Below, one piece after another: positions 57,317-57,634 of a DNA stretch of 64,000 bases. Every line of letters begins with the position of its first letter. The first letter of the stretch is position 1. The position numbers were made by a program, and so were the translations under genes. The notes under the pieces are model-generated. The model saw only the letters and a list, made by a program, of their open reading frames with translations. It made no database searches and was not told the DNA's origin. Source of the DNA: Escherichia coli. Its GTDB lineage: Bacteria > Pseudomonadota > Gammaproteobacteria > Enterobacterales > Enterobacteriaceae. The DNA lies in NCBI RefSeq assembly GCF_048403405.1, contig NZ_CP183129.1; one strand, given 5' to 3'.

Positions 57317-57340
57317 CGCGCAGAAAAAGCGCGTTTTTTT
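57317..57340 (+). terminator. Rho-independent terminator downstream of P-Q
   Basis: CGCGC-agaaaaa-GCGCG followed by TTTTTTT. Confidence 0.55.
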
Positions 57341-57410
57341 GTGCACGCACGGATCCTTGACGGATCCAGCCGCCATGCGGGCCGGAAGGGTAAAAAGTCG
57401 TTCAAAAAAA

Positions 57411-57440
57411 TTGTGCAAATTTGTGCACTTTTGTGCAGGT
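57411..57440. promoter_or_regulatory. Three helically phased TTGTGCA repeats upstream of a TTGACC -35-like hexamer
   Basis: TTGTGCAaat TTGTGCActt TTGTGCAggt at exact 10-bp spacing, with a fourth TTGTGCA at 57339; TTGACC lies at 57457-57462. Confidence 0.5.
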
Positions 57441-57537
57441 AAGCATGCCTATATATTTGACCGTGGCTTGCCTTTGATGTAGTTTATACGTCACAAAAAC
57501 CACAAAACGTGGTTATGATTTCTATGAGGGGGTTGAT

Positions 57538-57573
57538 ATGAAAAAAATGTATGATGAATTTGATGGTTTCTAA
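57538..57573 (+). CDS. Candidate 11-aa leader peptide (MKKMYDEFDGF)
   Basis: ATG with GAGGGGG 6 nt upstream, stop 20 nt before a strong terminator; likely a leader/attenuator rather than a protein with its own function. Confidence 0.4.
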   Translation: MKKMYDEFDGF

Positions 57574-57593
57574 GCTACGTTGACCTCTAATGA

Positions 57594-57620
57594 GGCGGGG
57601 ATTTGCTCCCCGCCTTTTTT
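57594..57620 (+). terminator. Strong intrinsic terminator 14 nt upstream of the first membrane-protein gene
   Basis: GGCGGGGA-tttgc-TCCCCGCC followed by TTTTTT. Confidence 0.75.
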
Positions 57621-57634
57621 ATGGATGAAATAGG

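Follow-up and report, generated by a model that had tools for sequence, protein, structure and literature searches.

Short repeats beside a nicking site are known from phage lambda, in which the R sites of cosB are bound by the small terminase subunit. Arrest peptides such as TnaC and SecM combine a conserved C-terminal part with a variable N-terminal part. For the P2/P4 group, a 55-bp core of the cohesive-end (cos) region is attributed to Ziermann and Calendar (1990), as cited in PMC9594776 and PMC5694545, and cosL and cosR of P2 are annotated in AF063097. A variable hotspot next to cos, between gpQ and gpA, has been described in P2-like phages, about one quarter of which carry a ParM/ParR-like module (Rousset et al., PMC9122126). 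The present analysis concerns positions 57,317 to 57,634 of a 64,000-nucleotide stretch of Escherichia coli DNA (contig NZ_CP183129.1, assembly GCF_048403405.1; hereafter the window), ahead of a cassette that begins with a membrane-protein gene of the DUF4760 family. BLAST comparison with annotated phages showed that the prophage in the window is P88-like (Xuanwuvirus, Peduoviridae; the P2 family), and its variable cargo lies between the end of the portal gene and replication gene A. The reading preferred here, with a probability of roughly 55%, is that the interval would comprise the cos region of this prophage (57296-57437) followed by the native front end of the DUF4760 gene (57438-57634), two apparently unrelated elements that join at 57437|57438.

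The junction was located by the extent of homology. Backbone homology to most P88-like phages stops at query position 451, which is 57437 and the last base of the third TTGTGCA repeat, and therefore the repeats are assigned to the backbone, with the cargo starting right after them. The cos block was present in 1147 of 5426 complete E. coli genomes, and most of the matches listed end at 57437/57438; the segment to the right (57438-57634) was found in 300 of the 5426. In phage records, DUF4760 comes next wherever this right segment is present. E. coli ST131 strains, e.g. JJ1886, have the block 57285-57445 at 100% identity. A P4-like satellite in E. coli JML285, with an ogr/Delta zinc finger, an integrase and a toprim primase, shares only 57285-57438 with the window (81% identity), including all four TTGTGCA copies, so that the cos region is common to helper phage and satellite. 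Enterobacter phage phiT5282H matches the window only at 57293-57437. The repeat triplet is kept in the satellite and in phiT5282H, and partly in the relative AMSCJX04. The satellite (NZ_AP024114 3987091-3993244) also has a gene annotated as a P2-family major capsid gene, which is unusual for a P4-like element.

The left part of the interval follows the arrangement of the annotated cos sites. P2, 186 and P4 have, in the same orientation, a 19-nt cos, a hairpin, TTTTAATGCA, a 72-bp gap and three copies of (A/C)ATGCA spaced 10-12 bp apart. In the window, a 19-nt core homologous to GGCGAGGCGGGGAAAGCAC was found in the same register (Table 1). The P2 cos, GTGCTTTCCCCGCCTCGCC in the orientation of the window, is identical at 13 of 19 positions to 57296-57314 and at 15 of 19 to the AMSCJX04 relative, by our own count from the aligned strings. 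This inferred core lies within the most conserved block of an alignment of seven diverged elements, including a satellite, in which the run CCCCCGTCACCTGCGC is invariant. Moreover, TTTTTGTGCA, the site of the isolated TTGTGCA copy, is identical in all seven, and the distance from the isolated copy to the triplet is 72 bp in the window, P2, P4 and 186. The 55-bp core ends at the isolated copy according to our own alignment. The hairpin with a T-run directly after the core, at the same position in P2, P4 and 186, came from a scan for terminator-like structures; it falls within the interval treated by the preliminary description and was unlisted there.

Two other placements of cos were considered and rejected. 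The hairpin at 57592-57616 contains GAGGCGGGGA, which matches the P2 cos; however, that segment is cargo-specific, and the P2 register puts cos at 57296-57314. The use of GCGCGCAG as the left flank, with cos at 57323-57341, is disfavoured because this stretch differs between helper and satellite and does not fit the P2/P4/186 register.

The TTGTGCA copies themselves are as first described: three at exact 10-bp spacing (57411, 57421, 57431) and a fourth at 57339. The heptamer alone is not enriched in the window (11 copies vs 15.6 expected); the phased triplet has one match vs 0.01 expected, even with two mismatches allowed. The most plausible role of these repeats is within the packaging signal: we infer that the packaging machinery (terminase, perhaps together with a host factor) would recognise them, and they are not taken as operators of the cassette. 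The preliminary description had proposed that the array binds a regulator of the cassette and that translation of a leader toggles a terminator by classical attenuation. The phased direct repeats indeed adjoin a promoter, and a leader and a terminator are present; however, the array belongs to the backbone irrespective of cargo, is kept in a satellite free of the cassette, and matches the cos-flank register of P2, 186 and P4. In P4 the array sits between the end of psu and cos, with no downstream gene there to control. Together with the folding results given below, these observations make the regulator-and-attenuation scheme extremely improbable.

The triplet might alternatively be a parC-like centromere, since a ParM gene and a ParR-like gene lie across the cassette, and type II centromeres are arrays of phased short repeats, as in R1 parC. 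However, P2, 186 and P4 have an equivalent array and no ParM in the annotation that was read (all of P4; the cos-proximal parts of P2 and 186). No ParM is annotated nearby in phiT5282H, AMSCJX04 or the JML285 satellite, which keep the array, and in the window the variable cargo separates the array from parMR. A centromere is thus considered very unlikely.

The right part of the interval is the front end of the DUF4760 gene. The features of both parts, with the neighbouring genes, are collected in Table 1.

Table 1. Coordinates of the features in and around the interval
Feature	Position	Strand	Basis or remark
GPO-type scaffold gene	53198-54067	-	Open reading frame (ORF)
Terminase ATPase gene	54189-55940	+	ORF
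Portal gene (gene Q position)	55940-56986	+	ORF; 649-bp intergenic region on its 3' side
Inferred cos core, GGGCTGTTCCCCCGTCACC	57296-57314	+	Register alignment with the annotated 19-nt cos of P2
Hairpin and T-run directly after the cos core	57316-57340	+	Counterpart of the CGCCCGCTTCACGGGGCGG-TTTT hairpin in the 55-bp P2/P4 cos core
Isolated TTGTGCA	57339-57345	+	Counterpart of the TTTTAATGCA that ends the 55-bp P2/P4 cos core
Three TTGTGCA copies, 10-bp spacing	57411-57437	+	Distal cos region, last bases of the backbone
Predicted sigma-70-type promoter	57457-57485	+	TTGACC (57457-57462), 17-nt spacer, TAGTTT (57480-57485)
Stem-loop in the 5' untranslated region, AACCACAAAACGTGGTT	57498-57514	+	Scan for terminator-like structures and hairpins
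Shine-Dalgarno (SD) sequence and 11-codon micro-ORF	57526-57573	+	GAGGGGG (57526-57532); ATG...TAA (57538-57573), MKKMYDEFDGF
ACCTCT in the 18-nt spacer	57583-57588	+	Conserved in the enterobacterial subfamily
Intrinsic terminator	57592-57620	+	Stem-loop 57592-57616 (10 pairs, 7 G-C, loop of 5, -19.4 kcal/mol), six-T run to 57620
DUF4760 gene, 165 aa	57635-58132	+	Pfam PF15956; N-terminal transmembrane helix and helical bundle
Gene of the 280-aa multi-transmembrane protein	58172-59014	+	phrog_12528, function unassigned
ParR-like gene	Beyond the cargo	-	phrog_2515 partition protein, 1.5e-54
ParM gene	59417-60376	-	
Replication gene A, 955-aa protein	60453-63320	-	

The TTGACC promoter proposed upstream of the leader has both hexamers in place, and five relatives have it as TTGACT-N17-TAATTT with an intact palindrome, ATTACC-N5-GGTAAT, between the hexamers; the window has a degenerate copy of this palindrome (57467-57483). 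A promoter between the terminator and the DUF4760 ATG was considered and discarded, as no promoter-like site was predicted there. The relatives also have a hairpin at the position of the 5' stem-loop, with another sequence (TTCACT..AGTGAA, AACCACTGCGCGTGGTT). The subfamily of the window has this order: the promoter with its palindrome, 5' hairpin, SD, micro-ORF, spacer of 16-18 nt with ACCTCT, a GAGGCGGGG...CCCCGCCTT hairpin with T6, and DUF4760. This module adjoins cos in many P2-like phages and is also found in unrelated contexts, including three non-P2 loci with different terminators; some relatives adjoin a cI or integrase gene. The palindrome in the form TTACC-N5-GGTAA recurs near related micro-ORFs in unrelated phages (nine loci), between the -35 and -10 of DUF4760 promoters and also between a terminator and terS, and it looks like a putative operator for some protein. 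In IMGVR_UViG_3300007747_000080, a natural 83-bp deletion (equivalent to 57379-57461) removes the triplet and the -35 hexamer and retains the micro-ORF, the terminator and DUF4760.

The micro-ORF, described from the start as an 11-codon ORF with a strong SD, proved to be conserved at the peptide level. An acidic-aromatic ORF tail of the DEFDGF kind occurs once in the window vs 0.01 in shuffled sequences. Diverged copies encode MKKVFDEFDGF and MKKRYDEFDGF and carry wobble changes (GAT to GAC, AAA to AAG, TAA to TGA). Scanning IMG/VR for GAYGARTTYGAYGGNTTYTRA, the back-translated motif, gave at least 120 stretches, vs about 7 by our own chance estimate; at 95 of 129 sites in them, the micro-ORF is shorter than 15 codons or lacks an in-frame start codon (12 sites). 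Each degenerate position of the tail shows synonymous codon variation, and strong SDs lie upstream. For example, the family includes MHDEFDGF, MNDEFDGF, MKKFDEFDGF, MKKWFDEFDGF and MKKKRMNDEFDGF. Conservation is centred on the last six codons and the stop, and the N-terminal part varies in length and sequence. All three stop codons are used, TAA and TGA at DEFDGF sites and TAG in Acinetobacter and Alteromonas phages. In a scan of a species-representative genome collection, 88 matches were found vs about 35 estimated by chance; only those in Enterobacterales look genuine, and the ones in distant phyla fit chance.

The linkage to DUF4760 was assessed with 80 loci fetched by DUF4760 protein patterns alone, 53 of which have distinct upstream sequence; a tail was sought within 140 nt upstream. 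A micro-ORF with an acidic-aromatic tail (DEFDGF, EEYEGI, EGWDGF) was found at 39 of the 53 loci, vs 1 of 53 on the reverse complement. Most of the other 14 have a related micro-ORF on inspection (DENDGY, EEYEGF, EGWDGF, EGWDG, EGWDF, DEHDDL) that the parsing or the criterion had missed, and one of them is an insertion sequence (IS) insertion. In the EGWDG(F) class, the stop of the micro-ORF is 0-14 nt from the DUF4760 start or overlaps it, and a terminator is lacking. In phages of Pseudomonas and Acinetobacter, distant DUF4760 genes with 25-40% identity show the same design in unrelated DNA: an SD, a short ORF (EEYEGI/NEGWDF), and a hairpin with a T-run. Pseudomonas phage vB_PaeS-D14E has the leader ORF MAIKREPLLVAVVVREEYEGI followed by a hairpin and TTTTTCATGGAG, and Acinetobacter phage BUCTT20 a leader ending in MNEGWDF followed by a hairpin and T-run; Alteromonas phage P24 has MNLRDGWDDI and no clear terminator. 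The tie between micro-ORF, terminator, promoter and membrane-protein gene stated at the outset is thus borne out, with the same order in distant phages of unrelated nucleotide sequence, and the three elements form a real conserved unit that belongs to the gene. The constant element of this unit is therefore the peptide tail, with the terminator frequent and optional.

An autonomous small RNA or small ORF unrelated to DUF4760 was also considered for the micro-ORF, and was rejected because of the constant linkage in the census. The copy in Shiga toxin-producing E. coli that is free of DUF4760 is taken as a deletion remnant, because it still has about 20 nt from the start of a truncated DUF4760 gene. 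A plasmid-borne copy of the promoter, MKKRYDEFDGF and the terminator (80-86% identical) lies in a 1.3-kb unannotated gap with no DUF4760 after it; the plasmids, of 46-49 kb, from E. coli, Klebsiella and E. fergusonii, look phage-like. In some strains an IS4-family element (IS421) is inserted into the 3' arm of the terminator after GCTCCC and parts the micro-ORF from DUF4760 (five loci, including E. coli H1827/12).

Outside this linkage, 63 of 75 evaluable DEFDGF sites do not have DUF4760 next. The partners there are the small terminase subunit (phrog_51), an SbcD-like gp47 (phrog_100), or an operon end facing a convergent terminase gene, and the micro-ORFs are often in tandem with siblings ending DEHPDF, EENWDV or DEFEGF. 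Tandem or overlapping micro-ORFs with such sibling tails were seen in T4-like contigs of about 170 kb (three) and four further loci. For example, MNDEHPDF and then MNDEFDGF lie 5' of the SbcD-like gp47; a series of ..EDEHPDF, EENWDV and MYDEFDGF has ATGA overlaps; and MILDEFDGF is followed by MPCVLDEFEGFDEHPDF. In related phage records this region contains only hypothetical proteins, e.g. a-gt.2/a-gt.3. In four other P88-like hotspots, the DEFDGF micro-ORF comes right after a ParR-like gene (...NIRALFPE-stop) or after a putative ClpX-type zinc-finger gene, a label that is our own reading of the C-terminal sequence; a GGGGTGCACTGTCGCCCC hairpin and a 174-aa protein without a PHROG match follow. 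One type among these (L047) has no in-frame ATG, GTG or TTG, and its start may be CTG or coupled to an upstream stop.

Literature searches on DEFDGF and its sibling motifs, and on DUF4760 with phage, returned no relevant paper in the library searched. It is tentatively suggested that genes of 8-13 codons make up a family that is apparently undescribed, found in Enterobacterales phages and, as variants, in those of Pseudomonas, Acinetobacter and others. Its members would be ribosome-arrest leaders of a new class, or would encode a free micro-peptide whose target lies in the host or the phage. The hexapeptide pattern of the family would be acidic, acidic or Gly, aromatic, acidic, Gly, hydrophobic (DEFDGF, EEYEGI, EGWDGF). 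With the same reserve, the family may precede nearly every phage DUF4760 gene examined, and also terminase and recombination-nuclease genes.

The terminator of the preliminary description was confirmed, with its energy and six T residues as in Table 1. Its T-run ends 14 nt before the DUF4760 ATG, and its stem-loop starts after an 18-nt gap from the micro-ORF stop. A G+C-rich stem-loop directly before a U-run, as in intrinsic terminators, is kept in evolution: the stem has compensatory changes (GGGGA/TCCCC to GGAGA/TCTCC; 2 of 8 consensus pairs), and distant DUF4760 loci have an unrelated hairpin and T-run at the same position. E. coli and Pseudomonas loci whose terminators are unrelated also share the ATGG right after the T-run (57621-57638 in the window). 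Here this ATGG begins a 5-codon ORF, MDEIG, and the TGA of that ORF overlaps the ATG of DUF4760 (ATGA); elsewhere, neither its frame nor its length is conserved.

Attenuation by alternative folding is not supported. RNAalifold on 12 diverged copies found only the terminator and no conserved alternative hairpin, and the best fold without the terminator (its 3' arm forced single-stranded) is 14-18 kcal/mol worse. A single-sequence fold contains a helix that sequesters the SD (57521-37 with 57579-90), which was rejected because it is not conserved. ACCTCT could pair with the SD of the micro-ORF or with GAGG at the base of the terminator; this pairing is seen in the single-sequence fold and is absent from the consensus structure. 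MKKMYDEFDGF has no run of regulatory-amino-acid codons, and some relatives lack a terminator, with the micro-ORF abutting the DUF4760 start. Nothing was found that competes with the terminator hairpin in energy. A search of Rfam over 56900-59200 gave nothing at gathering score; the best match over the leader was SorX (19.3 bits vs 46.6, E = 0.17).

The peptide could instead act as a nascent-chain sensor, in which the conserved tail delays termination or release once the stop codon is reached, and the paused ribosome sets the output of DUF4760, in the manner of tnaC or secM and without alternative hairpins. The means would be occlusion of the start site where the ORFs abut, and elsewhere read-through, mRNA decay or re-initiation. 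A conserved C-terminal motif in a short leader (DEFDGF, EEYEGI, EGWDGF, with synonymous variation), the variable N-terminus, the constant position 5' of DUF4760, and the stops close to or overlapping the start in the EGWDG(F) class agree with this. At terS-linked loci, the hairpin starts 5 nt past the stop codon of the micro-ORF, within reach of a terminating ribosome. However, the gap from stop to hairpin is 14-29 nt in DUF4760-linked loci, which places the hairpin there beyond the stretch that a ribosome at the stop codon covers. Two DEFDGF micro-ORFs at operon ends, facing a convergent terminase gene, have nothing downstream to regulate, and the use of TAA, TGA and TAG speaks against release-factor-specific arrest. 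A rather low probability is given to this sensor.

A product of 8-13 residues that is functional by itself is also conceivable, as a partner or antidote of DUF4760 or as a general phage factor mimicking an acidic tail that ends in Phe; the terminator would then ensure a large excess of peptide over membrane protein. Peptide-level selection in many contexts (before terS and the SbcD-like gp47, at operon ends, and in tandem with siblings), the many sites without DUF4760 and the strong SDs favour it, and the tail presumably resembles the C-terminal tip DDDIPF of the single-stranded-DNA-binding protein SSB and the tail of T7 gp2.5. However, very short cytoplasmic peptides are usually unstable, and the literature search on the motif strings found no relevant paper. 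AlphaFold docking on a paired fusion alignment, a weak test, gave no placement of the peptide on DUF4760: the mean predicted local distance difference test score (pLDDT) was about 48 for the tail and 83.7 for DUF4760. A free micro-peptide is accordingly regarded as unlikely.

In the preferred reading, which is also the simplest, the predicted sigma-70 promoter would drive a short, stable transcript with the 5' stem-loop and then a well-translated micro-ORF, and most transcripts should end at the terminator 18 nt past its stop. DUF4760 and the 280-aa protein would come only from read-through. The terminator might thus be a fixed divider, giving much micro-ORF message and little membrane-protein message with no switch between alternative folds.

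Several points weigh against this reading. The linear record of P88_4B11 (LR595891) starts at 57392|57393, 78 nt from the inferred cos core, which may reflect either an arbitrary linearisation or a different nick site. The third repeat of P2 overlaps the old-tin -35 region (counted from the annotated starts 33424/33426), which would also suit a regulatory array, and the repeats may therefore have a dual role that includes transcription. In the P2/P4 cos literature searched, no statement was found that places the distal triplet in a functional site, and the later cosmid papers give no minimal extent of cos. What the sequences show is the anatomy, its conservation and the family membership; the position of cos cleavage, the promoter and its use, the efficiency of termination, and the functions of the repeats and of the peptide are predictions. 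Moreover, a fixed divider leaves the conservation of the hexapeptide and the abutting, terminator-free relatives unexplained, which calls for some additional role of the peptide, in cis or in trans; in the AlphaFold model the tail was not docked onto DUF4760.

The DUF4760 protein matches PF15956 with E = 2.1e-34 over model positions 2-141 of 141 and belongs to phrog_2284, which is without an assigned function. AlphaFold2 predicted it with pLDDT >90 over most of residues 1-160. The toxicity that the preliminary description ascribed to the cargo is putative. There was no PADLOC match to DUF4760; Rousset et al. (PMC9122126) list the protein in their hotspot tables, and it is absent from the systems reported there as validated. 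The 280-aa protein had a weak PADLOC match to Csx27 (E = 1.6e-5), and all PADLOC tests on the cassette were counted as negative. Csx27 is an accessory membrane protein of type VI-B CRISPR systems. A homologue of the 280-aa protein was found only beside DUF4760 genes at least 98.8% identical to that of the window, and 87 of 102 loci with enough downstream sequence had none; the gene is a lineage-specific addition outside the conserved unit. A ParM/ParR-like partition module (59098-60376, minus strand) lies between the cargo and replication gene A.

About one fifth of E. coli genomes carry the cos block, which adjoins a hotspot studied for anti-phage systems, and the end of the backbone at the last TTGTGCA gives a base-exact cargo boundary. 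Extending the cos region to the distal triplet would matter when cosmids or transducing particles of the P2/P4 type are built. At its length the micro-ORF escapes gene callers and Pfam, yet it is conserved at the peptide level across temperate and T4-like phages and accompanies a widespread membrane protein almost constantly. As an arrest peptide it would be a new type of sensor; as a free peptide it would be among the smallest conserved phage gene products. Under either possibility, the function of DUF4760 becomes testable through a defined two-part unit.

Comparison with known systems showed both similarities and differences. The cos part is of a known type: like the sites of P2, 186 and P4, it lies between the portal gene and the cos-proximal hotspot, has a homologous 19-nt core, a hairpin, a T-run and an isolated (A/G)TGCA, followed after 72 bp by three phased copies, and is shared by helper phage and satellite. 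It differs from them at 6 of 19 core positions and in having TTGTGCA at exactly 10 bp instead of (A/C)ATGCA at 10-12 bp; the distal phased triplet shared with satellites may be under-appreciated. The lambda cosB site also has short repeats by the nick site, which would be a resemblance by analogy, as the sequences are unrelated and the number and spacing differ. The front end resembles the trpL, hisL and pheL attenuators in its promoter, translated leader ORF and intrinsic terminator before a structural gene; however, it has no antiterminator hairpin and no regulatory codons, its conserved part is the hexapeptide at the C-terminus, and some relatives do without the terminator. With the tnaC, secM and macrolide-resistance leaders it has in common a short leader with a variable N-terminus and conserved residues next to the peptidyl-transferase centre; whereas its micro-ORF is also found where nothing lies downstream, and stalling is putative. 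Finally, it is similar to the morons of temperate phages as an autonomous accessory unit with its own promoter in a variable prophage locus, and differs in that the terminator lies between the micro-ORF and the accessory gene and not after the gene.

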